DNA of 60,602 nt from Chloroflexota bacterium (GTDB taxonomy: Bacteria; Chloroflexota; Limnocylindria; Limnocylindrales; CSP1-4): the NCBI GenBank assembly GCA_016200665.1, contig JACQEG010000073.1, positions 1 through 60,602 of the forward strand. The letters are read 5' to 3'. Each line of letters starts with the position of its first letter. The first letter of the stretch is position 1. The notes beneath the pieces were generated by a model. The model searched no databases. It saw nothing but the letters and a program-made list of their open reading frames with translations, and was not told the origin of the DNA. Positions 40,534-58,242 of this stretch are shown one piece after another. A program made the translations under genes and the position numbers.

Positions 40534-41610
40534 GTGTACGCGGTCATCCTGGCCGGCGGAGGCGGGACGCGGCTCTGGCCCCTGAGCCGACCCGAGACGC
40601 CGAAGCCGTTCCTCCCCCTGCTCGGCGATCGGTCGCTCCTCCAGCTCACGGTCGACCGCCTCGTCGACCACCCGGAGCTGCAGCTCGGGCCGGGTGACGT
40701 CACGGTCGTCACGGACCGCCGCTACGCCGGCCTCGTGCGCGACCAGCTCGCCGGCGTGCACGTGCTCGCGGAACCCACGGGTCGCAACACGGCCGCGGCC
40801 ATCGCGCTCGCGACGCTCACGATCGAGCGTGATCCGGCCGAGGTCATGCTCGTCCTGCCGGCGGACCAGCTCATCGCGGAGGGCATGGAGGCCGCCTACC
40901 GCGGCGTCCTCGCCGCCGCGGAGGCCGAGCTCGCCCGGGGCTTCCTGGACGTCGAGGATCCACTGGTCACGCTCGGGGTCCCGCCCACCCGGCCGGCGAC
41001 CGAGTACGGCTACCTCGTCCCGGACACGAGCCGCGGCCAGACCCGGACGCTCACCGCCTACCCGCTCCTGCGCTTCCAGGAGAAGCCGACCGTCGAGCAG
41101 GCGATCCAGCTGCGGAACAACCCGGGCACCGCCTGGAACGCCGGGATCTTCGTCTGGCGGCGCCGCGCGATCCTCGCCGCGCTGGCGAAGTACACGAGCC
41201 TTGTCACGCTCCTCGGGCCGCTCGCGAACAGCGAGATCGGCCTGGCCCAGGCCTACGACCACGTCCAGCCGGTCTCGATCGATCGGGCGGTCATGGAGAG
41301 CGCGGCGAGCGACCACCGGGTCGTCATGGGCTCGATGGCCGTCGGCTGGGACGACCTCGGCAGCTGGACCCAGCTCCTCGCCGCGGTCGGGGCCGGCGGC
41401 GAGGGCCGCGTCGTCCAGCCGAACGAGGCTGCGGCGGCGACCGAGGACGACCTCATCATCGAGCGGACAGCCGGCCGGCTGTCGGTCTCTGAGGGGCCGC
41501 GCACGGTCCTCGGCCAGAGCGCCTCGGCGCTCATCACCGGTGGCGCATCATTCCGCCCACGGATCGAATCGCTCGTCGGCCGCGTCGCGGCATGGGAGGA
41601 ACGCCAGTGA
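40534..41610 (+). CDS. manC: Mannose-1-phosphate guanylyltransferase (no fused isomerase domain)
   Basis: VILAGGGGTRLWPLSR...PKPF, EP.GRNTA, PADQ, EYGY, FQEKP, WNAGIF, SID.AVME, WDDLGSW. TAGGAT lies 6 nt before the GTG. Confidence 0.9.
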   Translation: MYAVILAGGGGTRLWPLSRPETPKPFLPLLGDRSLLQLTVDRLVDHPELQLGPGDVTVVTDRRYAGLVRDQLAGVHVLAEPTGRNTAAAIALATLTIERDPAEVMLVLPADQLIAEGMEAAYRGVLAAAEAELARGFLDVEDPLVTLGVPPTRPATEYGYLVPDTSRGQTRTLTAYPLLRFQEKPTVEQAIQLRNNPGTAWNAGIFVWRRRAILAALAKYTSLVTLLGPLANSEIGLAQAYDHVQPVSIDRAVMESAASDHRVVMGSMAVGWDDLGSWTQLLAAVGAGGEGRVVQPNEAAAATEDDLIIERTAGRLSVSEGPRTVLGQSASALITGGASFRPRIESLVGRVAAWEERQ

Positions 41611-43070
41611 GCCCTGCGGCGGCACCATCGCCGATCGTCTTCGGGACCGACGGCTGGCGGGCGCGGATCGCCGACGAGTTCACCTTCGAGAACGTCCGGC
41701 GCTGCGCCGCCGGCGTGGCGCGCTACGTGGTCGAGCGCGGCGAGCAGGCAAAGGGCGTGGTCATCGCCTACGACCGGCGGTTCGCCTCCGAGCACTTCGC
41801 CGCGGCGGCGGCCGAGGTCCTCCTCGCCAGCGACATCCCGGTCGCCTATGCCGCCCATGCGGTGCCGACCCAGATGAGCTCGTTCGAGGTCCTCGAGCGC
41901 GGCGCGGCGGCGGGCATCGTCATCACCGCCAGCCACAACCCCTGGACCGACAACGGCTTCAAGGTCAAGGCCCCGACCGGCTCGGCCGGGGGCCCGGAGA
42001 TGCTCGCGGTCATCGAGAAGGCCATCGCCGAGGACGCGCCGATCGAGCGCCGGCCGTTCGCGGACGCCGAGGCGGCCGGGCTCGTGGAGCGCTTCGACCC
42101 GTACGAGGGCTACGAGCGCTACGTCCGGCGGACCGTCGATCTCGATGGCCTCAAGGCGGCCGACGTCTCGGTGCTCGTCGAGCCGCTGTGGGGCGCGGGC
42201 GTCGGCTGGCTGCCGCGACTCCTGGCCGGCGGCAGGATCCGGGTCACGGAGCTCCACCAGGAGCGGAACCCGTACTTCGGCGGCGTGAACCCGGAGCCGA
42301 TCCGGCCCAACGTCGACGAGGCCCTGGGGATCCTGTCGCGCGGCGGCTATGACATGGGCCTGCTGCTCGACGGCGACGCGGATCGCGCCGGAGCGGCGGA
42401 CGAGTAGGGCGGCTTCATCCACCAGCTCGAGGTGACAGGCCTGCTCATGTACTACCTGGCCGAGCACCTCGGCAAGCGGGACCCGGTCGTCATCTCGGTG
42501 AACAACACCTCGATGGCCGCCCGGCTCGGCGAGCGCTACGGCATCACGGCCTACGAGAGCCCGGTCGGCTACAAGTACATCGGCCCGAAGATGATCGAGA
42601 CCGGCGCGATGATGGGTGCCGAGGAGTCCGGCGGCTACGGCTTCGGGATGCACCTCCCGGAGCGCGACGGGGTCTATGCCGACCTGCTGCTGCTCGACCT
42701 GTTCCTGCGCGAGAAGGCCCGCGGCGTCTGGCCGGTCTCGAAGATCGTCGCGAAGTTCCACGAGATCGCCGGTCCGTCGTTCTACCGCCGGATCGACGTC
42801 CACGTCGAGCGATCGACCTACCCCGACGTGAAGCGCCGGCTGCTCGTCGGGCTGGGCGACACGCCGCCGACCTCGCTGGCGGGCCGGCCCGTGACCCGGA
42901 CCGATCGCCTCGCCACGAATGACGGCTACAAGTTCCTCACGAGCGATGGCTCGTGGCTCCTCATCCGGACGTCCGGCACGGAGCCGCTCGTCCGGATCTA
43001 CACCGAGGCGTCGACGCCCGACGCCCGCGAGGCGCTGCTCGCCGTCGGGGAGCAGCTCGTCCGTGGCTGA
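41607..43070 (+). pseudogene. Phosphoglucomutase/phosphomannomutase interrupted by an in-frame TAG at 42405-42407
   Basis: FGTDGWR, TASHNP, DGDADR before the stop; VGYKYI, GAEESGG, RDG, IRTSGTEPLVRIY after it in the same frame. Read-through length would be 487 aa. Confidence 0.88.
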
Positions 43071-46455: not shown

Positions 46456-47496
46456 ATGCGGCTCTCCCGACCATTGGCATGGCTCGTCGCCGTGCTCGTC
46501 CCCGTCCTGGCGGCCTGCAGCGGGACGACGCCCTCGGGCTCACCCGGCGGGTCGAGCGCTTCAGGCCAGCCCTCGAGCTCCGCTGAATCGAGCGGCCCGA
46601 CGGCCTCGCCGATCGCCTATCCGCTGACCCTCACCGACGACGAGGGCACGGCGGTCACGATCCCGGCCGCGCCGAAGACGATCGTCTCCCTGACCCCGGC
46701 CACGACCGAGACGGTCTTCGCGATCGGGGCCGGCCCCGAGCTCGTCGGGCGGACCGATTCGGACGACTACCCGCCGCAGGCGTCCGCGGTGAAGGTCGTC
46801 GTCAAGCTCGGCCGCGTCGACGTCGAGCAGGTCGTCGGCCTCTCCCCCGACCTGGTCCTCGCCGGCGGCGACGGCTTCACGCCACCGGATGTCGTCGCGC
46901 AGCTCCGGTCGCTGCACATCCCGGTGATCGTCGTCTACGCGAAGGACGTCGCCGGCGTCCTGGCGGACATCCGGCTCGTCGGCCAGGCGGCCGGCCATCC
47001 CGGACCTGCCGGCGACCTCGCCGACTCGATGGCCCAGCAGATCGACGCGATCCGGGCCGCGACCGACGGCATCGACCGGCCGTCGGTCTTCTACGAGATC
47101 GATGCCACGGCCGCGATCTACACCGCGGCCGACCAGTCGTTCCTCGCCGAGATGCTCACGATCGCGGGCGGCGACCCGGTGACGACCGGCAGCACGACCG
47201 CCTATGACATCCCGCTGGAGAAGCTCGTCGCGGCGGACCCCGCGATCATCCTGCTAGGGGACGCGGCCTACGGCGTCACGCCGGATGTCGTTGCGGCGCG
47301 GCCCGGCTGGGGCACGATCGCCGCGGTCAAGGCCCGCCAGATCCTGCCGGTCAATGACGTCGTCATCACCCGGCCGGGACCGCGCCTCGTCGAGGGCCTC
47401 ATCGACCTCGTCCGGGCGATCCATCCGGAGCTCGGGATCGAGCCGCTCGGCTCCGGCGCGCCCCCGGTGCCGAGCCCGGCTCCGGCTGGCTCGTAG
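46456..47496 (+). CDS. btuF: Cobalamin/iron-siderophore ABC substrate-binding lipoprotein
   Basis: Lipobox LAAC, TLTDDEG..V.IP..P..IVSL.PA.TE, DVEQVVGLSPDLVLA, TRPGPRLVEG; riboswitch upstream. Confidence 0.88.
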   Translation: MRLSRPLAWLVAVLVPVLAACSGTTPSGSPGGSSASGQPSSSAESSGPTASPIAYPLTLTDDEGTAVTIPAAPKTIVSLTPATTETVFAIGAGPELVGRTDSDDYPPQASAVKVVVKLGRVDVEQVVGLSPDLVLAGGDGFTPPDVVAQLRSLHIPVIVVYAKDVAGVLADIRLVGQAAGHPGPAGDLADSMAQQIDAIRAATDGIDRPSVFYEIDATAAIYTAADQSFLAEMLTIAGGDPVTTGSTTAYDIPLEKLVAADPAIILLGDAAYGVTPDVVAARPGWGTIAAVKARQILPVNDVVITRPGPRLVEGLIDLVRAIHPELGIEPLGSGAPPVPSPAPAGS

Positions 47497-47516
47497 CGGC
47501 CGCGGGAGCACGCAGC

Positions 47517-48593
47517 GTGGCCCACGCCTCCGCGCTCCGGGCCGGCGCCCGCCCCCGGGCGGCGTACCTGCGCTCGCGCCGCCCGATCGCCCTCGCGGCG
47601 GCCGGCATCGTGGCGCTCGTCCTCGTGTTCGTCGCCGGCGTCGCTGCCGGCACCGTTGCGGTGCCGATCGGCGAGACGGCCGGGATCCTCGCCCACCGGC
47701 TCCTCGGGCTCCAGGTGCCGGTCACGTGGACGCCGGCCCAGGAGACGATCGTCTGGGACCTCCGGCTGCCGCGGGTCCTCACGGCGATGACCGTCGGCGT
47801 CGGGCTGGCCGTGGCCGGCGTGACGTTCCAGGGCCTGCTCCGCAATCCGCTCGCCGATCCGTACGTCCTGGGCACCGCGTCCGGCGCGGCCCTCGGGGCC
47901 GCGATCGCGGTCATCCTGCCGGTCCGAACCGTGATCCTCCACTTCGGGCTGCTGAACGTCCTCGCCTTCGTCGGGGCGCTCGCCGCGGTGACGCTCGTCT
48001 ACCGCCTCGCCCGGATGGGGGCGGGCGGCCAGACGACGAGCCTCCTGCTTACCGGCTATGCCGTCGGGTCGCTGCTGGCGGCCGGGCTGGCGATGGCGAT
48101 GTACCTGTCCGGGGCCGGCCTGCGCCAGATCTTCACGTTCCTGCTCGGCGGCTTCGAGGCGTCGTCCTGGGAGCGGCTCGCCGCCGCCGCGCCGCTCATC
48201 GCGATCACGTCGATCCTCATCGGGCTCCGGGCACGGTCGCTCAACGGCCTGCTCCTGGGCGAGGAGGCCGCGGCGCACCTGGGCGTGGACGTGCGGCGGG
48301 AGCGGGCGATCCTGCTCGCCCTGGCCTCGCTGGCCACGGCGGCGGCAGTCGCGGTCTCGGGCCTCGTGGGATTCGTCGGCCTCGTGGCGCCGCACGTGGT
48401 CCGGCTCGTCGTCGGCCCGAGCGCGCGCCTCGTCCTGCCGCTCTCGGCGCTCCTCGGGGCGAGCCTCATGGTCGGCGCGGACCTCGTCGCCCGGCTCGTG
48501 GGCGAGATTCCCGTCGGGGTCGTCACCGCCCTGGTCGGGGCGCCCTTCTTCCTCGTGCTCCTGCGCCGCTCGCGCTCGGGCTACGAGCTGTGA
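47517..48593 (+). CDS. btuC: Cobalamin ABC permease (FecCD family)
   Basis: IVWDLRLPR, FQGLLRNPLADPYVLG, LGEEAAAHLG, GFVGLVAPH, GAPFF. Confidence 0.9.
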   Translation: MAHASALRAGARPRAAYLRSRRPIALAAAGIVALVLVFVAGVAAGTVAVPIGETAGILAHRLLGLQVPVTWTPAQETIVWDLRLPRVLTAMTVGVGLAVAGVTFQGLLRNPLADPYVLGTASGAALGAAIAVILPVRTVILHFGLLNVLAFVGALAAVTLVYRLARMGAGGQTTSLLLTGYAVGSLLAAGLAMAMYLSGAGLRQIFTFLLGGFEASSWERLAAAAPLIAITSILIGLRARSLNGLLLGEEAAAHLGVDVRRERAILLALASLATAAAVAVSGLVGFVGLVAPHVVRLVVGPSARLVLPLSALLGASLMVGADLVARLVGEIPVGVVTALVGAPFFLVLLRRSRSGYEL

Positions 48594-49415: not shown

Positions 49416-50399
49416 ATGCCTGCCACCACCCCCAAGCCGTTCCAGTTCCTCATCGACGCCCGCGAGATCGTCTCCGGCGCCGAGCTCGCCGCCCGGGCTC
49501 GCCGGGCCGAGGCCATCGGCTATCACGAGCTCGTCGTCCCGGATCACCTGATCCCGCAGCTCGGCCCGGTCGCGACGATGGCGTACATCGCCGCGGTGAC
49601 CGAGAGGATCCGCGTCGCGGCGTTCGTCCACAACAACGACCTCCGCCACCCGGTCGTCCTCGCCCAGGAGCTCGCGTCCATCGACGTCCTGTCCGGTGGC
49701 CGTCTCGACGTCGCCATCGGAGCGGGCTGGAACCAGCCCGAGTACGACCGCATCGGCCTCCCGTTCGACCCCGTGCCCGTGCGCCAGGCCAGGCTCATCG
49801 AAGCCATCGCGGTGCTGAAGGGCGCCTTCGCGGACACGCCCGAGGGCGGCTTCTCGTTCGAGGGCGAGCACTACCGGATCAGCGGCCTCGATGGCCAGCC
49901 GAAGCCGGTCCAGCGGCCCCATCCGCCATTCCTCATCGGCGGCGGCGGTCGCAGGACGATCGAGCTTGCCGCCCGGGAGGCCCAGATCGTGGGCCTCGCG
50001 CCACGGATCCTGTCGGGCCAGCGCGCCGAGCCCCGCTCGGTCACGGTCGCCGGCACCGCGGAGAAGATCGAGTGGGTCCGGGCCGCCGCGCCGGAGCGCT
50101 TCGACGGCCTCGTCTTCAACGTCTACCCGACGCTGACGGGCATCTCCGTGACCGACCACGCCCGATCCGAGGCGAAGGACGTCGTGGCGGCCACTGCCCA
50201 GCGGACGGGTGTCGAGCTGATGGTCGAGGAGCTGCTCGAGTCGCCGCACGTCTTCATCGGCTCGATCGACGAGCTCGAGCAGAAGCTCATCCGCCTGCGG
50301 GAGCAGCTCGGGATCAGCTCGTTCATGGTCGGGGTCCTGGGCACGGCCGACGCGCCGGGCGTCCTCGATCCGCTCGTGGAGCGCCTCGCCGGCCGCTAG
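49416..50399 (+). CDS. LLM class oxidoreductase, probably F420-dependent type
   Basis: PDHL, RHPVVLAQELASIDVLSGGRL..IGAGW...EY, PVQRPHPPFLIGGGG, SPHVFIGS. TAGCAT lies 6 nt upstream. Confidence 0.85.
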   Translation: MPATTPKPFQFLIDAREIVSGAELAARARRAEAIGYHELVVPDHLIPQLGPVATMAYIAAVTERIRVAAFVHNNDLRHPVVLAQELASIDVLSGGRLDVAIGAGWNQPEYDRIGLPFDPVPVRQARLIEAIAVLKGAFADTPEGGFSFEGEHYRISGLDGQPKPVQRPHPPFLIGGGGRRTIELAAREAQIVGLAPRILSGQRAEPRSVTVAGTAEKIEWVRAAAPERFDGLVFNVYPTLTGISVTDHARSEAKDVVAATAQRTGVELMVEELLESPHVFIGSIDELEQKLIRLREQLGISSFMVGVLGTADAPGVLDPLVERLAGR

Positions 50400-50998
50400 G
50401 GCTTCTGCAGGCCGCCCGGGAAGAATGGGATCCCGCCGGGGATCGTCGTCGGGACGACGTCCTTGATGTCCTTCGGGAGCAAGGGCCCGAGCAGGAGCAG
50501 GACGATCGGGACCGTCGTCTGCTCGAGGAGGCCACCGATCGTCGAGTCGTCCACCTGGGTCCGGATGTCCTTGAGGACGCCCGTCTCGACGAAGGTCGAC
50601 GGCAGGCCGGAGCCGATCGTCGAGAACGTGTGGAGGATGACGATCGCCGCCGAGGCGATCAGGACGCCCTCCGCAAAGCCGAGCACGGCTCCGAGCGACT
50701 TGTCGGCCACCTCGGACAGCCCGTGCTGCGGGGCCCGGGCGAGGAGCGGCGTTGCGAACAGGTTCAGGGCGAACAGGATCACCGGAAAGGCGACCACGTA
50801 GCCGACCATCTCGGCGTATGGCTCCGGGATCTTCGGCAGGACGCCGTGGACGATCGCGCCGGCGGGGGCGCGCAGGTACGTGCTCGCGAGGAACGACACG
50901 CCCAGGAACGCGAGCCCCACGAGCCGCCGCAGGAAGCCGCTCCGCCAGCCGGCGAGCACGAGGCCGCCGATGAGGAACAGCAGCACCAGATCCGCCAC
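50396..50998 (-). CDS. cvpA: CvpA (colicin V production) family membrane protein
   Basis: GWRSGFLR.L and DK.LGAVLG..EG motifs, 4 TM. SD GGGGAGGG before the GTG. Confidence 0.82.
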   Translation of the reverse strand: MADLVLLFLIGGLVLAGWRSGFLRRLVGLAFLGVSFLASTYLRAPAGAIVHGVLPKIPEPYAEMVGYVVAFPVILFALNLFATPLLARAPQHGLSEVADKSLGAVLGFAEGVLIASAAIVILHTFSTIGSGLPSTFVETGVLKDIRTQVDDSTIGGLLEQTTVPIVLLLLGPLLPKDIKDVVPTTIPGGIPFFPGGLQKP

Positions 50999-51030
50999 GG
51001 GACGCCCTCCCCAACTGCCTTGCCGACGAC

Positions 51031-51204: not shown

Positions 51205-52410
51205 TCAGGCGCGCTTGCGCGGCAGATCGAGGAACGGGAGTGGCACGACCGTGGCCGCGACCCGGCCGCGGCGGCCCTCGACCGTCCACTCGACGGACAG
51301 CTTCGAGCCGGCGGCCTCGTACGAGGCCGGCACGGAGGCGAGACCGATCGCCTCCTTCAGGATCGGGCTCCAGCCGAGGCTCGTGACCTTGCCGATCTGG
51401 CGGTCGCCCCGCAGGACGCCCGGCGCGAAGACCGGCGCGGCGGCGCGGCTGACCGCGGGCGAGATCGCCGGTGGCAGGTCCTGGGCCGAGTAGAGGCCCT
51501 CGATGCCGTACCAGTCCAGCGCGACGCCGACCAGGCGCCGGGCCGGGCCGCCCCGTGCCGCCTCTCGCCGGAGTGCCAGCTGGCCCACGAACGGTGCCTT
51601 GTCGAGGTCCACGAGGCGGCCCATCGCCAGCTCGTAGGGGGAGTAGTTCTGCTCGGGGTTGAGGGCGTGCCGGGCGGAGGTGTAGTCCACCTCGAGGAGC
51701 ACCAGCCCAGCCTCGAGCCGGACGACGTCGAGGGCGAGCATGCCGGCGGGTCGGATGCCGTATGCGGCTCCGGCGGACGCAAGCGCGTCCCAGGCCTCGG
51801 TGGCCCGATCGGCCGGGATCCAGACCTCGTACCCGAGGTCGCCCGTGTACCCGGTCCGGGAGACGCCGACGGGGATCCCGGCAAGCATCGCGTCGCGCCG
51901 GCGGAAGAAGCGCAGGTCGGCGAACGAGGTACCGGTCGCGGCCTCGAGGACCGCTCGCGAGAGCGGCCCCTGGAGCGCGATCGCGGCGAGCGCCTCGGTG
52001 ACGTCCTCGATCGAGACATCGAGGCCGCGGGCATTGAGCGTCAGCCAGCGCTGCTGCGGGTCCGCCGCCGTCCACAGGAACTCGGACTCGGCGATCCGGT
52101 GGACCGTGCCGTCGTCGATGACCTTGCCGTGCTCGTCGCACCACGGGGTGTAGAAGACCTGGCCGACGCTGAGCTTCGAGGCATCCCGGGTGATGACCCG
52201 ATCGACGAGCCGCGGGGCGTCCGGTCCGCTGACCCGGTACTTGAACAGCGGCGTGACGTCGATGAGCGCCGCCGCCTCGCGGATCGCGTTGTACTCGATG
52301 TCGTGGGCGTCGGCGTAGGCCGAGGCCGCCCACCAGCCCGACCACTCGCGCCACTGGAGCTTGCGGTTGAGCGGCGCGGTACGGGGATGGAGCGGCGTCC
52401 CGAGGCTCAT
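51205..52410 (-). CDS. Stand-alone GcvT-like aminomethyltransferase/demethylase family protein
   Basis: EYNAIREAAALIDVTPL, GKVIDDGTV, ALQGPLSR, SRTGYTGDLGYE, R.EAG, KVTS..WSPILK..IGLA. Confidence 0.88.
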   Translation of the reverse strand: MSLGTPLHPRTAPLNRKLQWREWSGWWAASAYADAHDIEYNAIREAAALIDVTPLFKYRVSGPDAPRLVDRVITRDASKLSVGQVFYTPWCDEHGKVIDDGTVHRIAESEFLWTAADPQQRWLTLNARGLDVSIEDVTEALAAIALQGPLSRAVLEAATGTSFADLRFFRRRDAMLAGIPVGVSRTGYTGDLGYEVWIPADRATEAWDALASAGAAYGIRPAGMLALDVVRLEAGLVLLEVDYTSARHALNPEQNYSPYELAMGRLVDLDKAPFVGQLALRREAARGGPARRLVGVALDWYGIEGLYSAQDLPPAISPAVSRAAAPVFAPGVLRGDRQIGKVTSLGWSPILKEAIGLASVPASYEAAGSKLSVEWTVEGRRGRVAATVVPLPFLDLPRKRA

Positions 52411-52432
52411 CGCCGCCAGTATCGCGACTTCG

Positions 52433-53440
52433 TCAGGTGCCCGCCGGGGCCTCCGCGTCGGCTGGGGCCGCCGTGGTGGCGTCCGGGGCCCCCACGGCCG
52501 GCGCGTTCGGTGGCTCGGGTGCCACGTATGGCATCGCCGGCTCGGCCAGGCCGAAGGCGAATGCCACGACGATCAGCGCCTGCCCGACCCCGAGGGACAG
52601 GAAGCCGAGGGCGTAGTCGACGTCCTCGAGCCCGAGGCCGCCGCCGAGCAGCACGGGCGACTGGATCGTGGTCATGACGACGCCGGCGAGGATCGCAACG
52701 TCATCGAGGAGCCCAGTCATCGTGGCCCCGACCGCGGCCGCGGTCGTCGCGATCGCCGGCCGTCGGCTGTCGCCGACCCCGCGGATGACGATCCACAGGA
52801 GATACAGCCACGCGCTGAGCTGGGCATAGACCACGAGGTTCGACAACACGAGCAGGCCATCGAGCCCGGGGATGCCCGTCTCCGGCACGTTGAGGAGATC
52901 CCGCCCGAGGGCCGCGAGCAGCGTCACGAGCCCGGCCCCGAGCACGAGGTTCGAGAGGCCGGCCGTCGATGGCGAGGGGCGCAGCGGGCTGAGCGCCGCC
53001 AGACCGCGCGCGATCAGGAGCCAGGCCACCAGCTTCGCGAGCGATTCCAGGACGCCGATCTCGACGTACAGGGCGTTGAGGCTGGCCGGGCCTTCGAACC
53101 AGCTCTGGACCGGCCGCCCGAAGGCCGTCACGAGCGCGATCGTCACCGCCCCGGCGAACACGAGCGGCGTGGCCCGCGCGGCATCCGGCCGGCGGAGCAC
53201 GAGCACGGCCGGCAGCAGGATCCACAGGTCGTGCGGGATGAGCATCGCGTAGAGCCCGAATGGGTCGATGCCGACGAAGGAGCGCGGCTGGAGGATGCCG
53301 ATCGATCGCGAGACGACGTCGAGGAAGGCGAGGATGACGAAGGCCCGCGCGACGACCGGCGCCTCGCGCCAGGCCCGCTCGACCGGCTCGCGCAGCCATG
53401 GCGGCACGCGCATCGGATCGACCACCCCGGTGCCGGCCAT
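52433..53440 (-). CDS. Hypothetical polytopic membrane protein (about 8 TM)
   Basis: Alternating hydrophobic segments. TACGCT lies 7 nt before ATG 53440. Confidence 0.72.
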   Translation of the reverse strand: MAGTGVVDPMRVPPWLREPVERAWREAPVVARAFVILAFLDVVSRSIGILQPRSFVGIDPFGLYAMLIPHDLWILLPAVLVLRRPDAARATPLVFAGAVTIALVTAFGRPVQSWFEGPASLNALYVEIGVLESLAKLVAWLLIARGLAALSPLRPSPSTAGLSNLVLGAGLVTLLAALGRDLLNVPETGIPGLDGLLVLSNLVVYAQLSAWLYLLWIVIRGVGDSRRPAIATTAAAVGATMTGLLDDVAILAGVVMTTIQSPVLLGGGLGLEDVDYALGFLSLGVGQALIVVAFAFGLAEPAMPYVAPEPPNAPAVGAPDATTAAPADAEAPAGT

Positions 53441-53517
53441 GGCCGACAGCGTAAACGGGCTGTCACGCGGTCCGGTAGAGTCCGGATCGTCCCATCGGTG
53501 TCGCACCGGAGGTCCGC

Positions 53518-55176
53518 GTGCCCCAGCGCTACGACGCGATCGTCATCGGCGGCGGCCACAACGGCCTGATCAGCGCCGCCTACCTGGCGCGCGCCGGGCT
53601 CCGGACGGTCGTCCTCGAGCAGCGCCACGTGCTGGGTGGCGCGGCGGTCACCGAGGAGATCTTCCCGGGCTACCGCTTCAGCGTGTTCTCGTACGTGGTG
53701 TCGCTGCTGCGGCCGGAGATCATCCGCGAGCTCGACCTGCCGCGCCACGGCCTGGACATCCTGCCCCTCGACGGCACCTTCACGCCGCTCCACGCGGGCG
53801 AGGGCCGGCCGGCCCCGATCGGTCCCGACGGCCGGAAGATCGGCACCGGCGATTACCTGTGGCGGGTCAACGACCACGGCCGGACGGTCCGCGAGCTGCG
53901 CCGCTGGTCGAAGCTCGACGCCGAGGCCTACGAGGAATACGGCCAGCTCATGGTCGACATGGCCCGGTTCATCAAGCCGATCCTGTCGATCGTCCCGCCG
54001 GACCCGGCCTCGAACGACCCGCGGCCGCTGCTCCCGCTCGGGGGTCTCCTTCGAAGCTTCCAGAAGCTGACCGAGCGCCAGCAGGCCGTGTTCGTCCAGC
54101 TCATGACCATGTCGGCCTTCGACTTCCTCAGCCAGTGGTTCGAGACCGACCCGCTCAAGGCCACGATGTCGGCGTCCGGGATCATCGGCACGTACCAGGG
54201 GATCAAGAGCCCCGGCACGGCCTACGTCCTGCTCCACCACTACATGGGCGAGATCGACGGGGCCTTCCGGGCGTGGGGCATCCCGAAGGGCGGCACCGGC
54301 GGGATCTCGGAGGCGATCGGCCGCGCGGCGGTGGCCAATGGCGCGGAGATCCGGATGGAAGCCGCCGTCGTCAACATCCGCACCCGGGGCGGGCGGGCCA
54401 CGGGCGTCGTCCTCGAATCCGGCGAGGAGCTCGAGGCCGACGCGGTCCTCTCGTCGCTCGACGTCCGGCGGACGTTCCTCGACCTCCTCGAGCCCGGCAC
54501 GGTCGAGCCGTCCTTCGAGGAGGAGGTGCGGCGGTTCAAGTTCCGGGGCTCGTCGGGCAAGGTCAACCTCGCCCTCGATGCCCTGCCGACGTTCACGTCG
54601 CTGCCCGAGCCCGGCGAGCACCTTCGGGGCGCGATCTCGATCTCGCCGTCGACGGCCGACATGGAGCGCGCCTACGACGACGCGAAGTACGGCCACTGGA
54701 GCCGGAAGCCGTACGTCGACGTCATCATCCCGACGCTTGTCGACCCGTCCATGGCGCCGCCCGGCAAGCACGTCATGAGCTGCTTCGTCCAGTACGCGCC
54801 CTACCACCTGGCCGAGGGCCTCGGCACCTGGGACGACAACCGCGAGGCGTTCGGCGACGCCGTCGTCAACCGGATCGCCGAGTTCGCGCCGGATCTCCCG
54901 TCGAAGATCCTCCATCGGAACGTCCAGACGCCGCTCGACATCGAGCGGACGACGGGCCTCAGCGAGGGCAACATCTTCCAGGGCGAGCTCTCGCTCGAGC
55001 AGCTGTTCTTCAGCCGGCCGGTGCCCGGCTACGCCCGCTTCCGAACGCCGATCCGGGACCTGTGGCTGTGCGGCTCGGCGACCCATCCCGGCGGGGGGAT
55101 CATGGGCGCCAACGGCCGGATCGCGGCGATGGAGCTGCTGGCGTCGCGGCGCCGCGGGCCCGGGAGGCCGGTATGA
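53518..55176 (+). CDS. FAD-dependent oxidoreductase, phytoene dehydrogenase/PYROXD2-like (copy 1)
   Basis: IVIGGGHNGL..AAYLARAG..VLE....GGAA, PKGGTG, GNIFQGEL, LCGSATHPGGG.MG.NG. SD GGAGGT. Confidence 0.88.
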   Translation: MPQRYDAIVIGGGHNGLISAAYLARAGLRTVVLEQRHVLGGAAVTEEIFPGYRFSVFSYVVSLLRPEIIRELDLPRHGLDILPLDGTFTPLHAGEGRPAPIGPDGRKIGTGDYLWRVNDHGRTVRELRRWSKLDAEAYEEYGQLMVDMARFIKPILSIVPPDPASNDPRPLLPLGGLLRSFQKLTERQQAVFVQLMTMSAFDFLSQWFETDPLKATMSASGIIGTYQGIKSPGTAYVLLHHYMGEIDGAFRAWGIPKGGTGGISEAIGRAAVANGAEIRMEAAVVNIRTRGGRATGVVLESGEELEADAVLSSLDVRRTFLDLLEPGTVEPSFEEEVRRFKFRGSSGKVNLALDALPTFTSLPEPGEHLRGAISISPSTADMERAYDDAKYGHWSRKPYVDVIIPTLVDPSMAPPGKHVMSCFVQYAPYHLAEGLGTWDDNREAFGDAVVNRIAEFAPDLPSKILHRNVQTPLDIERTTGLSEGNIFQGELSLEQLFFSRPVPGYARFRTPIRDLWLCGSATHPGGGIMGANGRIAAMELLASRRRGPGRPV

Positions 55177-56921
55177 CGGCGACGCGCATGCCCGCCACGA
55201 GCGCCGGACCGGCGGTCGCGCCGGGCCAGACCGTCGGCCAGCCCGCGGGCACGAAGCGCGGCCCCTGGGACGCTATCGTCATCGGCGGCGGCCACAACGC
55301 CCTCGTCTGCGCCGCCTACCTCGCCCGCGGCGGGCTGCGGACCCTCGTGCTCGAGCGCCGCGACCGCGTCGGGGGTGCGGCGGACACCGCCGAGCTTGGC
55401 CCGGGCATCAAGGTCCCCGCGGCGGCCCACACCGTCGGCCGGCTGCGGCCGTCCGTCCAGCGCGACCTCGACCTCAGGCGCCACGGGCTGTCGCTCGTCG
55501 CGCCGGACGTGCGCGTCTTCGCGCCCCTGCCCGGGGCATTCGTCCCTCGCGGCAGCCGGAAGGCGGCGGCCGGCGCAGGCGGGCCGGACGGCCGGGCCGT
55601 CACCCTGTGGTCCGATCCGCAGCGCACGGCGATCGGGCTGCTGGCCCGCTCGCCGCGAGACGGTGCGGCCTACGAGGCGTTCGATCGGCGGGTGCGCGAG
55701 CTCGGGAAGTTCCTCGAGGTGCTCGGCCGCGAGACGCCGCCGGACATCCGTTCGCCGAAGGTCGGCGACGCGTTCGCCGGGCTCCGGCTCGGGCGGTCGT
55801 TCCGCAACCTCGGCGGCGAGGGCGCACGGACGATCCTGCGCGTCCTGCCGATGGCCGTCGCGGACCTCGTCGGCGAGGCGTTCGAGGACGATGCCCTCCG
55901 AGCGGCCATTGCCTGGCGGGGCGTTCGGTACGGCGCGGTCGGGCCGTGGTCGGCGGGCACCGCGACGGTCCTGCTGGAGGATGGCGCGGGCAACGATGGC
56001 GGGGCCGCGGGCGAGATGGTCTTCGCGCGCGGCGGCCCCGGAGCGCTGGCCGAGGCCCTCGCCGCCGCGGCCCGAGCGGCCGGCGTCGAGATCCGGACCG
56101 AGGCGGAGGTCACGGCGGTCGCGAGTCGCGACGGCCGCGCGACCGGCGTCGTCCTCGCGAGCGGCGAGGAGATCCCGGCGCGGGCGGTCGTCTCCGGGCT
56201 GGATCCCAAGCGGACGCTCCTCGGGCTCGTCGATCCCGTCGCCCTCGGGCCGTCGCTCGGCTGGCGCGCCGGCAACATCCGGACGCCGGGCGTCGTGGCC
56301 AAGGTCAACCTCGCGCTACGGAAGCTCCCGACGTTCCCTGCCGCCGGCGACGACCAGCGGCTGCTCCGCGGCCGGATCCTCGTCGCGCCGGGCATCGATG
56401 CCATGGAGCGCGCCTTCGATCCCGCGAAGTCCGGCCACTGGAGCCCGGCCCCGGTCCTCGAGGCCACGATCCCGTCGCTCGTCGACCCGTCCCTCGTCGA
56501 CGGTGCGCGGCCGGGCACGCACGTCATGAGCGTCATCGCCCAGTACGCGCCGTACCGGCTCGACCCGTCGCTCGGTGACTGGGAGGGCCAGCGCGAGGCT
56601 TTCGGCGACGCCGTCGTCGCGGTGCTCGAATCCGTGGCACCCGGCATCGCCAAGCTCATCAGCCATCGCCAGGTGCTCACGCCGGTCGATCTCGAGCAGC
56701 GCTACGGCCTCACCGGCGGGCACCCGCTCCACGCCGAGGCCGGGCTCGATCAATGGGCGCTGTGGCGCCCGCTCCTCGGCCACGCCCGCTACCGAATCGC
56801 GCTGGAGCGGCTGTACCTCTGCGGCTCGGGCGCCCACCCCGGCGGCGGCGTGACCGGCGGCCCGGGCCAGAACGCGGCCCGCGAGGTGCTGACGGACCTT
56901 CGTGGACGCGCCGCCGGCTGA
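55173..56921 (+). CDS. FAD-dependent oxidoreductase, phytoene dehydrogenase/PYROXD2-like (copy 2)
   Basis: IVIGGGHNAL..AAYLARGG, ARGGPG, GHPLHAE, LCGSGAHPGGG.TG.PG. ATGA overlap with copy 1. Confidence 0.88.
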   Translation: MTATRMPATSAGPAVAPGQTVGQPAGTKRGPWDAIVIGGGHNALVCAAYLARGGLRTLVLERRDRVGGAADTAELGPGIKVPAAAHTVGRLRPSVQRDLDLRRHGLSLVAPDVRVFAPLPGAFVPRGSRKAAAGAGGPDGRAVTLWSDPQRTAIGLLARSPRDGAAYEAFDRRVRELGKFLEVLGRETPPDIRSPKVGDAFAGLRLGRSFRNLGGEGARTILRVLPMAVADLVGEAFEDDALRAAIAWRGVRYGAVGPWSAGTATVLLEDGAGNDGGAAGEMVFARGGPGALAEALAAAARAAGVEIRTEAEVTAVASRDGRATGVVLASGEEIPARAVVSGLDPKRTLLGLVDPVALGPSLGWRAGNIRTPGVVAKVNLALRKLPTFPAAGDDQRLLRGRILVAPGIDAMERAFDPAKSGHWSPAPVLEATIPSLVDPSLVDGARPGTHVMSVIAQYAPYRLDPSLGDWEGQREAFGDAVVAVLESVAPGIAKLISHRQVLTPVDLEQRYGLTGGHPLHAEAGLDQWALWRPLLGHARYRIALERLYLCGSGAHPGGGVTGGPGQNAAREVLTDLRGRAAG

Positions 56922-58242
56922 CGGCCCGGCGAGGGCCGCGGGTCTGCTGGACGACGCTCCGCCAGGCCGGCGCTTCGTCATCGCGGCGATCGTCGCCGGG
57001 ATGCTCGCGACGGCGATCGCGTGCTGGCTGCTCGACATCCTCGCCCGGCTCGGCGCGTGGGGCCCGCTGTCCGATGCCCTGTTCGTGACCCCGTTCTGGC
57101 ACGACGCCGTGGCGTCGTCGCAGGGCCTGCTGCCGTACCGCGACTACTCGCTCGAATACCCGCCCCTGAGCCTGCCGGTCCTGCTCCTGCCGGGCCTGTT
57201 CGCCGGACCGGGCCTGACCGAGGCCGGCTACAGGGCGGGCTTCGAGCTCGTCATGTCGGTCTGCTCCGTGGCCCTCGTGCCGATCGTCGTCCTGACCGTC
57301 GTCCAGCTCCGCGGTCGTCGGTTCGACCTCGTCGTCGCCACCGTGATCGTGGCCCTGTCGCCGCTCCTGCTGGGATCCCTCGCCATCTCGCGCTACGACG
57401 TGTGGCCCGCCCTGCTCACCGCCGTGGCGACGTGGGCGATGGTGTCGGGACGATTCCGCTGGGCCTTCGCGATCCTGGCGCTGGGAGTGCTGGCCAAGGT
57501 CTATCCGGGGTTCCTCATGCCGGTCTTCGTCGCGTACGCGTGGCGCCTGGCGGGCCGGCGCGAGGCGATCATCGACACGGCCATCGGCGCGGCCGTCGGC
57601 CTGGCGGGCATGCTGCCGTTCGTTGCGATCGATGCCGCCGGAGCGCTGGATCCGTTCACCCGGTTCATCGCCCGCCCGCTCCAGGTGGAAAGCCTCGGCG
57701 CGACGGTCCTGATGGCGCTGCATCACTGGCTCGGCACGGACTTCGGCCAGTTCGCCTACACGTACTTCTCGTTCAACCTCGTCGGCTCGCTGCCGTCCGC
57801 CGTCGCGGCGATCCAATCCGGCGTGCTCGTCGCGGTCCTGCTGGCCATCTGGCTGGCCGCCGCGCGGGGCCCGGCCGACCCGGCTCGGCTCGTCGTCGCC
57901 AGCGCGGCGGTGCTCGCGGCCGACGTGGCCCTCGGCAAGGTGCTCTCGCCGCAGTACGTGGTCTGGCTGGTCCCGCCGGTCGCCGTGCTCGCCGGGATCC
58001 GGGGCGTGCGACCCCTGGTGGCCGTCGCGATCGTCCTCGGCCTCACGCAGCTCTACTACCCCGCGATGTACCAGGCCTACCTGCGGTTCGACACCGGCGC
58101 GATCCTCACGATCCTTGAGCGCAACCTCGCGCTCGTGCTCCTGGCGCTCTACCTGGCGGCCGCGAGCGGCACGTTCGGGCCGCTCACGCGCCTGCGGCAG
58201 CGCGTGGCCGCCCCGATCCGCCCGCCCCTCGGTCGCCGATGA
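56902..58242 (+). CDS. GT-C fold glycosyltransferase (GT87/DUF2029-like)
   Basis: PYRDYSLEYPP, SRYDVWP, LAKVYP, KVLSPQYVVW; polytopic membrane protein. Confidence 0.82.
   Translation: MDAPPADGPARAAGLLDDAPPGRRFVIAAIVAGMLATAIACWLLDILARLGAWGPLSDALFVTPFWHDAVASSQGLLPYRDYSLEYPPLSLPVLLLPGLFAGPGLTEAGYRAGFELVMSVCSVALVPIVVLTVVQLRGRRFDLVVATVIVALSPLLLGSLAISRYDVWPALLTAVATWAMVSGRFRWAFAILALGVLAKVYPGFLMPVFVAYAWRLAGRREAIIDTAIGAAVGLAGMLPFVAIDAAGALDPFTRFIARPLQVESLGATVLMALHHWLGTDFGQFAYTYFSFNLVGSLPSAVAAIQSGVLVAVLLAIWLAAARGPADPARLVVASAAVLAADVALGKVLSPQYVVWLVPPVAVLAGIRGVRPLVAVAIVLGLTQLYYPAMYQAYLRFDTGAILTILERNLALVLLALYLAAASGTFGPLTRLRQRVAAPIRPPLGRR

Follow-up and report, generated by a model that had tools for sequence, protein, structure and literature searches.

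Here we describe a trio of neighbouring genes in a soil and groundwater bacterium, encoding two PYROXD2-related flavoproteins (F1 and F2) and a folate-binding GcvT-like protein. Judging from their families and neighbourhoods, the three proteins probably constitute a split, folate-coupled oxidative N-demethylase. The adjacency of the trio is found in three gene orders, in Chloroflexota, Actinomycetota, Acidobacteriota and Alphaproteobacteria, and thereby in at least four phyla. The original prediction, which had read this locus as a demethylation system, is supported both by the co-occurrence of the genes and by the evidence on carotenoids presented below.

In the mechanism that we infer, along with the complex and its electron acceptor, F1, which falls on the PYROXD2 branch within the CrtI/amine-oxidase fold, would use its FAD to attack an N-methyl group of a small amine or amino acid, oxidising the C-N bond so that an iminium or carbinolamine results. 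The GcvT-like protein would bind tetrahydrofolate (THF) and take over the one-carbon unit as 5,10-methylene-THF, a capture through which no free formaldehyde would be released. F2 would either form a heteromer with F1 or catalyse the next demethylation step; that it forms a heteromer is a guess, to which we give about even chances.

Anatomy of the locus

Since the window (the whole stretch of 60,602 nucleotides that was analysed) has a GC content of 72%, genes were called by third-position GC. F1 (53518-55176, plus strand; 552 aa) has a GTG start with a GGAGG (53508-53512) 5 nt upstream, and F2 (55173-56921, plus strand; 582 aa) starts at its own ATG, which overlaps the F1 stop as ATGA. With a mutual identity of 44%, the two are indeed the coupled, divergent paralogues they had been taken for. 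The stand-alone GcvT-like gene (51205-52410; 401 aa, Pfam GCV_T and GCV_T_C) lies on the minus strand, in agreement with the folate-type gene predicted there, and a multi-TM protein (52433-53440, minus strand; 335 aa) is encoded between it and F1. The divergent intergenic region (53441-53517), which was predicted as a shared control region, measures exactly 77 bp from the multi-TM start at 53440 to the F1 start at 53518, and contains the likely promoter of F1-F2. A -10-like TAGAGT (53476-53481) can be read from its sequence, with TAGACT, TAGAGT or TACAGT at a comparable distance 5’ of F1 in many orthologous loci, and the region carries an inverted repeat (GACAGC-N8-GCTGTC) at 53445-53464. A scan for sigma-70 consensus promoters and terminators yielded nothing at this GC content, and the window contains no module-specific transporter or regulator.

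Two membrane genes had also been noted beside the trio. Both are present on the minus strand, but the gene for the small CvpA-like protein (about 50399-51010, start uncertain; Pfam Colicin_V, 55.4 bits) lies just beyond the 51205-56921 region in which it had been placed, and it has no counterpart among 80 related loci. The multi-TM protein matches neither Pfam nor NCBIfam models, and weak relatives of it (33-39% identity) occur in only two of the 80 loci. Around half of the congeners do without its gene, as does a sister family with 1.1-Mb genomes; in these, the GcvT-like gene and F1 diverge directly from each other across gaps of 68-258 bp. We therefore reject both membrane genes as parts of the module, as we do the GT87-like gene (56902-58242), which is not conserved alongside the trio in the 80 loci.

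Conservation of the trio and its neighbours

The set of 80 species-level loci, drawn from Chloroflexota, Actinomycetota and Acidobacteriota, shows F2 directly downstream of F1 in 78 cases. Where at least 3 kb of upstream DNA is available, a GcvT-like gene (48-86% identical) is present upstream in 63 of 66 loci; three loci (L059, L060 and L101) have 9-10 kb of upstream DNA and lack it. Relative to F1, this gene is divergent in 68 loci and co-directional in three, and it lies less than 400 bp from F1 in 39 of 71. The only gene families common to more than a quarter of the 80 loci are F1, F2 and the GcvT-like protein. Same-strand GcvT-F pairs exist in other Chloroflexota families, a paralogous GcvT’-F’ pair is found in congeners, and an F1-F2-GcvT operon is located on four alphaproteobacterial replicons (Rhizobium, Fuscovulum, Parasedimentitalea and Shinella). 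The co-occurrence anticipated by the original prediction is thus found in four phyla and three gene orders, and an arrangement that is seen in 63 of the 66 testable loci, across three phyla, and that has two further gene orders elsewhere is far beyond chance.

F1 and F2 are kept in all 25 genomes of the genus (the source genome and 24 congeners), and the trio is retained in streamlined relatives of 1.0-1.4 Mb. Pairwise identities of F1 and of the GcvT-like protein correlate strongly in a mirror-tree comparison (r = 0.96), which may reflect shared phylogeny only. Within Chloroflexota the module is patchily distributed: 31 of 151 sampled genomes (21%) are positive. At least 595 matches were found among species-representative genomes, and many Acidobacteriota, Actinomycetota and Alphaproteobacteria have them. 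Among 29 Chloroflexota genomes with distant F homologues (44-49% identity), 13 have no GcvT-like match at E <= 1e-60, and the coupling to GcvT is therefore a trait of a subfamily rather than of the whole flavoprotein family.

The neighbouring genes suggest that methylated amines are catabolised. PurU, which is typically found next to sox clusters, immediately follows F2 in 16 acidobacterial loci, and other neighbours include APC permeases, GbcA-like Rieske oxygenases, aldehyde dehydrogenase, PotD-like ABC transporters, omega-aminotransferases, TetR and BetI-type regulators, and a 680-aa flavoprotein of the OYE/Fe-S amine-dehydrogenase type. A link with PotD-type importers, which had been proposed, is seen in all four annotated alphaproteobacterial loci, and these also hold GbcA-like Rieske oxygenases and omega-aminotransferases. 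The Fuscovulum island additionally contains a DMSP-lyase-family gene. No electron acceptor such as ETF, and no lipid or isoprenoid genes, are conserved near the module.

Protein families and competing readings

The GcvT-like protein belongs, by its Pfam matches (GCV_T, PF01571, 210.6 bits; GCV_T_C, PF08669, 50.2 bits; both above the gathering score), to the GcvT-fold THF-binding superfamily. Its best NCBIfam match, at 287.6 bits and below cut-off, is to the C-terminal THF domain of trimethylamine N-oxide demethylase (Tdm), and its closest PDB entry is Tdm as well (9q59, 192.7 bits). The Tdm model is matched only at positions 388-682 of 763, its equivalog cut-off is 1100, and the 401-aa protein lacks the N-terminal Zn catalytic domain, so that a full Tdm can be rejected. 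Further matches are to dimethylglycine oxidase (DMGO, 1pj5; 102.5 bits), to dimethylglycine dehydrogenase (DMGDH) and to the soxA model (158.9 bits). Residues D100, Y188 and E195 align with D96, Y188 and E195 of Thermotoga maritima GcvT; D100 and E195, the folate-site Asp and Glu of T-proteins, are invariant across 69 module-linked orthologues, and position 188 is Y in 65 of these and F in four. When this protein served as query, a first homologue search returned only close Limnocylindria relatives, at 78% identity or more.

A role in canonical glycine cleavage can be rejected for the GcvT-like protein. The GcvT equivalog models are not reached (TIGR00528, 150.4 versus 235.85 bits; PRK00389, 210.7 versus 300), and the genome has a separate canonical gcvT-like gene, only 32-35% identical to that of the window, which adjoins gcvH on contig C80, with gcvP on C63. 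The lack of gcvP and gcvH in the window, noted originally, is borne out by these locations. In a tree, moreover, the GcvT-like protein clusters with other flavoprotein-linked GcvTs, apart from the genome’s canonical gcvT (support 91/94). We propose that it captures the one-carbon unit. The THF domain of Tdm, its closest solved relative, binds THF with a Kd of about 149 nM, and formaldehyde is channelled to it to form methylene-THF (PMC13619132).

Could the GcvT-like protein instead be the demethylase itself, transferring a methyl group from S, O or N straight to THF in the manner of DmdA or LigM, with F1 and F2 oxidising the demethylated product or a precursor and no one-carbon unit handed over? 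The characterised stand-alone enzymes of the GcvT family, DmdA, LigM and DesA, do act without a flavoprotein, the DmdA and LigM models are matched at 124 and 77 bits, respectively, and the DMSP-lyase-family gene of Fuscovulum would suit such chemistry. However, the Tdm THF domain (287.6 bits) and GcvT (210.7 bits) score well above these models, and PurU and the GbcA-like Rieske oxygenases suit a one-carbon flow that starts from N-methyl groups and runs at the formaldehyde level. That the GcvT-like protein is strictly paired with a single flavoprotein subfamily, furthermore, suggests a shared reaction, and we consider direct methyl transfer unlikely.

Both F1 and F2 have an Amino_oxidase match and a GxGxxG motif, and F1 also matches NAD_binding_8; matches to DAO cover short stretches only, mainly at the Rossmann N-terminus. 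Orthologues of F1 in three phyla are 65-91% identical to it. Its AlphaFold2 model (pLDDT 82.6) is nearest, in a Foldseek search, to CrtD (4rep, TM 0.74), with CrtI-type 4dgk among the top matches, followed by nicotine, monoamine and putrescine oxidases, such that the modelled fold fits flavin amine oxidases and CrtI-type enzymes alike. Along its full length, F1 is 40% identical to mouse PYROXD2 (P0224; 548 columns, 384 bits, E 2e-131) and has the LLHHxMG, GNIF and HPGGGxMG motifs in common with it, which places F1 in the PYROXD2 family as defined by full-length similarity and shared motifs, rather than by phylogenetic orthology. F2 shows 35% identity to mouse PYROXD2, again along the full length, and the HH pair and the N of GNIF are missing from every F2 orthologue. 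We propose F1 as the catalytic subunit, and F2 as a partner subunit or second-step enzyme. An in-frame TGA flagged in one F2 orthologue (G029/L013) is the natural stop, read through at the alignment end, and in-frame TAG flags in F2 orthologues of the genus look the same, since the alignments stop at query residues 547-551.

Human genetics connects PYROXD2 with methylated amines. [quoted passage not shown] The association with methylamines and N-methyl-lysine which the original prediction had mentioned is therefore correct.

The resemblance of F1 and F2 to desaturases raises the question of whether they act on something other than a methyl group, by desaturating C-C bonds or oxidising amines in a lipid, isoprenoid or polyamine, with GcvT linked only indirectly, for example by shared regulation or formaldehyde detoxification. 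The nearest solved folds are the carotenoid desaturases 4rep and 4dgk, a fold common to C-C desaturases, the best NCBIfam model is CrtO, and some F-type homologues occur without GcvT. Against this, every CrtI and CrtO score is far under its cut-off (CrtO, NF045689: 273.1 bits for F1 and 195.2 for F2, versus 1000; crtI_fam, TIGR02734: 113.3 and 99.4, versus 238.1), and phytoene/squalene synthase (PF00494) was found in none of the 25 genus genomes, in a search of which the positive controls worked in eight known genomes. The adjacency to GcvT, held through three gene orders and four phyla, and the lack of conserved lipid or isoprenoid genes nearby also make a non-methyl substrate quite improbable.

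The chemistry could in principle serve biosynthesis, in a reductive methylase dependent on folate and FAD that, like ThyX, TrmFO or MnmEG, methylates a metabolite with methylene-THF and reduced flavin. Methylation by flavin and methylene-THF exists, and retention of the trio in 1.1-Mb streamlined genomes could fit a housekeeping role. We nevertheless regard this as very improbable, given the catabolic character of the neighbours (transporters, aminotransferases, aldehyde dehydrogenase, PurU, Rieske oxygenases of the N-demethylase type and TetR repressors) and the patchy spread among Chloroflexota; the association of PYROXD2 variants with N-methylated lysines also speaks against it, albeit without indicating a direction. 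Lastly, that F1 and F2 are pigment-making carotenoid ketolases or desaturases of the CrtO/CrtI kind, for which only family-level similarity can be cited, is close to refuted: their scores are far below the cut-offs, a carotenoid role is very unlikely because all 25 genus genomes lack phytoene synthase yet keep F1 and F2 (in the source genome PF00494 is absent throughout, beyond the window from which crtB had already been noted as missing), and where the sister family does have a phytoene synthase gene, it is on another contig or separated from the module by over 20 kb.

Candidate substrates and comparison with known systems

For the split N-demethylase that we favour, the neighbourhoods allow no narrower choice of substrate than an N-methylated amine or amino acid of small size. 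If PYROXD2 is a guide, the leading candidates would be free N-epsilon-methyl- and dimethyl-lysine, together with related N-methyl amino acids. The frequent occurrence of GbcA-like Rieske oxygenases nearby makes the di- and monomethyl intermediates formed from a betaine-type quaternary amine further candidates. It is a tentative and somewhat doubtful extension that the trio represents, in bacteria, the prototype of the reaction of PYROXD2: its folate-coupled demethylation would salvage free N-epsilon-mono- and dimethyl-lysine, as well as related N-methyl amino acids (N-methylpipecolate, for example), set free in protein turnover or imported from outside. If true, this would assign a reaction to a human orphan disease gene, PYROXD2 being a mitochondrial flavoprotein tied to a severe infantile metabolic disorder. 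PYROXD2 would gain a testable function, with bacterial operons from culturable hosts as an easy route to its reaction. Given its wide distribution, the module may also be an overlooked methylated-amine sink in soil and water. In the literature covered by our search, many subscription papers lying outside it, we found neither a description of the GcvT, F1 and F2 module nor an enzymatic assignment for PYROXD2.

To our knowledge, folate-coupled N-demethylation by flavoproteins is so far known only for DAO-type enzymes. Should the proposed reaction be correct, CrtI/PYROXD2-type flavoproteins would join this chemistry in an unusual split, three-protein form, constituting a previously unrecognised demethylase class built on the CrtI fold. 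DMGDH/DMGO, sarcosine dehydrogenase (SARDH) and 4-methylaminobutyrate oxidase (MABO) share the proposed logic, in which flavin-dependent oxidation of an N-methyl group is followed by capture on THF by a GcvT fold. In these enzymes, however, a DAO-type FAD domain is fused to the GcvT-like domain in a single chain, whereas here an Amino_oxidase of the CrtI/PYROXD2 type is unfused, and two of the three polypeptides are paralogous flavoproteins. The trio may work like these enzymes, yet it is not a member of their class. Heterotetrameric sarcosine oxidase (SoxABDG) and N-methylglutamate dehydrogenase are likewise multi-subunit flavoenzymes with a GcvT-like THF site, but homologues of SoxB, SoxD and SoxG are not present, and subunit families and architecture differ. 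The dimethylamine monooxygenase DmmDABC reportedly has a separate THF-binding subunit beside an N-demethylating oxidoreductase; its catalytic subunits are presumably unrelated to F1 and F2.

Among solved and curated relatives of the GcvT-like protein, the C-terminal THF domain of Tdm (9q59) comes closest, but catalysis in Tdm falls to an N-terminal domain that contains Zn and no flavin; this domain is absent here, where the THF module is separate and paired with flavoproteins. CrtI, CrtD and CrtO have the same overall FAD fold as F1 and F2 and give weak family-level HMM matches, but these remain far below cut-off, in a genus without a carotenoid pathway and among wholly different neighbours. 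Mammalian PYROXD2, finally, resembles F1 (40%) and F2 (35%) over its full length; we know of no reaction assigned to it and of neither a paralogous nor a GcvT-type partner.

The trio as a conserved unit

The GcvT-like gene and the genes of two PYROXD2/CrtI-like FAD flavoproteins, F1 and F2, form a unit (hereafter the trio), a conclusion that we hold with high confidence. Since the window has a GC content of 72%, its genes were called by third-position GC content. By the names of close homologues, its genome belongs to Candidatus Limnocylindrales (Chloroflexota). On the plus strand lie F1 (53518-55176, 552 aa, with a GTG start preceded by GGAGG) and F2 (55173-56921, 582 aa), each with an Amino_oxidase match and a GxGxxG motif; the two are 44% identical, and the F1 stop and the F2 ATG overlap as ATGA. 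A 77-bp gap (53441-53517) separates F1 from a minus-strand gene for a 335-aa multi-TM protein without any family match (52433-53440), which lies 22 bp upstream of the gene for the 401-aa GcvT-like protein (51205-52410, minus strand; GCV_T 210.6 bits, GCV_T_C 50.2 bits). A CvpA-like membrane protein is encoded at about 50399-51010, also on the minus strand (Colicin_V 55 bits). The original prediction had described just such a divergent arrangement, with coupled flavoprotein paralogues facing GcvT-like, multi-TM and small TM genes, and was right wherever checkable. Its membrane genes are present in the window and do not belong to the conserved trio: in a sister family of the same order, no membrane gene intervenes between the GcvT-like gene and F1, which lie side by side in divergent orientation.

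Adjacent orthologues of the trio are present in 40 relatives, including this sister family with its 1.0-1.4 Mb genomes (G025-G040). These genomes are about 90% complete, have a TetR gene downstream of F2 and a phytoene-synthase-family gene elsewhere, and their 63-65% GC is uncommon at such a small size. Adjacency at the order level is partly general synteny, because a BtuF-like binding protein and FecCD-type permease that neighbour the trio in the window (46456-48593; best models the B12 transporter BtuF/BtuC) also lie a few kb upstream in the sister-family locus L014. A pattern scan of species-representative genomes returned at least 595 F1 relatives, the best 80 of which (65-91% identical to F1) were used for locus counts; these 80 come from Limnocylindria, Actinomycetota (Gaiellaceae, Solirubrobacterales) and Acidobacteriota (Terriglobia, Vicinamibacteria, Pyrinomonadaceae, Thermoanaerobaculia). 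F2 comes next after F1 in 78 of the 80 loci. Of the 66 loci whose upstream DNA extends to 3 kb or more, 63 have a GcvT-like gene (48-86% identity) there, and three lack it despite ample sequence. Relative to F1, this gene is oriented divergently in 68 loci and lies on the same strand in three. When all neighbouring ORFs were clustered, any family beyond the trio occurred in at most 19 of the 80 loci. Gene order varies elsewhere: GcvT precedes F on one strand in other Chloroflexota families, and in Rhizobium sp. SL42, Fuscovulum ytuae, Parasedimentitalea marina and Shinella zoogloeoides a TetR gene is divergent from an F1-F2-aminomethyltransferase operon. The co-occurrence that had been proposed as a check is thus seen in several gene orders across Chloroflexota, Actinomycetota, Acidobacteriota and Alphaproteobacteria.

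Mean conservation is highest for F1 (74%), followed by GcvT (61%) and F2 (52%). The pairwise identities of F1 track those of GcvT (r = 0.96), a correlation that common ancestry alone could produce. Among 29 Chloroflexota genomes with more distant F homologues (44-49% identity), 13 lack a GcvT-like match at E <= 1e-60, so that GcvT coupling marks a subfamily and not the whole F family. In an even sample of 151 Chloroflexota genomes, 31 carry F1-type genes, a patchiness that fits an accessory catabolic trait.

Several congeners (G005:C10, locus L016; G006:C26, L020; G017:C1, L017; G010; G015; G022) possess an extra pair of paralogues, GcvT' (about 41-43% identity) and F' (about 50%), on one strand. 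This pair is adjoined by a divergent BetI-type TetR in L016 and L020, with acyl-CoA synthetase or dehydrogenase genes close by in L016 and L017; it was not found in the window's own assembly (2.37 Mb, 82% complete).

Regulatory sequence and surrounding genes

In eight Limnocylindria loci (L025, L027, L030-L033, L035, L036), a -10-like TAGACT some 40-90 nt upstream of F1 is immediately followed by the inverted repeat CTGCAT-N7-9-ATGCAG, which is probably a repressor operator of the F1-F2 operon. This palindrome is absent upstream of the window's F1, where a -10-like TAGAGT (53476-53481) and a different inverted repeat, GACAGC-N8-GCTGTC (53445-53464), are found.

Downstream, a gene at 56902-58242, whose longest ORF shares 20 nt with the end of F2, encodes a 446-aa multi-TM protein that weakly resembles GT87 glycosyltransferases (22.5 bits, below cut-off); in other lineages this gene is not kept behind F2. 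An F420-dependent LLM-class oxidoreductase gene (49416-50399; 261 bits against a TIGR03621 cut-off of 213), which converges end to end with the CvpA-like gene, suggests that this Limnocylindria lineage uses F420. Farther away, an ORF of 271 aa (41592-42407) looks truncated, since it clusters with 487-aa sister-family proteins.

Flavoproteins and their proposed folate-binding partner

A role of F1 and F2 in carotenoid synthesis, which would have spoken against the original prediction, can be almost ruled out: all 25 genomes of the genus keep both flavoproteins, yet none encodes a phytoene or squalene synthase. Scores against the CrtO model (F1 273, F2 195 bits; cut-off 1000) and the CrtI-family model (113 and 99 bits; cut-off 238) lie far below threshold. 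The AlphaFold model of F1 (pLDDT 82.6) is nearest to CrtD (4rep, TM 0.74), 3ka7 and CrtI, followed by nicotine, monoamine and putrescine oxidases at 13-18% identity; with both groups among its matches, the predicted fold alone would permit C-C or C-N oxidation.

For the kinship with PYROXD2, a human sequence served only as bait to retrieve PYROXD2 proteins from the database, and the comparison used mouse PYROXD2 (P0224). F1 matches it over its full length at 40% identity (384 bits, E 2e-131) and F2 at 35%. The motifs LLHHxMG, GNIF and HPGGGxMG occur in both F1 and PYROXD2; all F2 orthologues examined keep the FAD fingerprint and lack the HH pair and the Asn of GNIF. The human variant rs2147896 accounts for about 50% of N6-methyllysine variance (PMC8109053), in agreement with the association given in the original prediction. 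The function of PYROXD2 was still termed unclear in a 2022 clinical paper (PMC8777681), and no enzymatic assignment was found in the literature searched.

The GcvT-like protein falls under every cut-off of the GcvT equivalog models. Its D100, Y188 and E195 align with D96, Y188 and E195 of the Thermotoga maritima T-protein, the Asp, Tyr and Glu of the folate site. Among 69 orthologues, D100 and E195 never vary, and Y188 is Tyr in 65 and Phe in four. In our tree, all flavoprotein-linked GcvT-like proteins form a single group (support 91/94), which excludes both the canonical gcvT and the fused-protein GcvT domains of the window's genome. That canonical gcvT adjoins gcvH on contig C80, and gcvP lies on C63, so the window does lack gcvP and gcvH, as had been noticed. 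Among curated models, the GcvT-like protein best matches that of TMAO demethylase, Tdm, in its C-terminal THF domain (287.6 bits over model positions 388-682 of 763), which is also the nearest solved structure (9q59, 192.7 bits). This domain binds THF at ~149 nM and turns channelled formaldehyde into methylene-THF (PMC13619132).

A putative split N-demethylase

In Acidobacteriota, the formyl-THF deformylase PurU stands right behind F2 in 16 loci, and near the trio are APC permeases (16 and 13 loci), a Rieske oxygenase with glycine-betaine monooxygenase GbcA as best model (nine) and an aldehyde dehydrogenase (six). Alphaproteobacterial operons are flanked by GbcA-like Rieske oxygenases, an omega-aminotransferase, TetR, a 680-aa OYE/Fe-S flavoprotein of amine-dehydrogenase type and a PotD-like ABC transporter, the kind of importer that had been suggested as a neighbour. 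These genes differ by lineage and agree in pointing to a putative stepwise demethylation of methylated amines, then transamination, with surplus one-carbon units passing via folate.

Together with the chemistry of the Tdm THF domain, these catabolic neighbours make a split, folate-coupled oxidative N-demethylase the best explanation of the trio, one that we consider moderately likely. In this scheme, catalysis would fall to the flavoprotein F1, F2 would serve as its partner or as a second-step enzyme, and the one-carbon unit would be captured by the GcvT-like protein. As to substrate, analogy with PYROXD2 would favour N-epsilon-methyl-lysines and N-methylpipecolate, and the Rieske, BetI-type and aminotransferase neighbours would favour intermediates of a betaine-type omega-amino compound.

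We found no description of the trio module in the literature searched, and its interest lies in its commonness and its link to PYROXD2. The proposed chemistry is already known; what would differ is the carrier, another flavoprotein family, split into three proteins.
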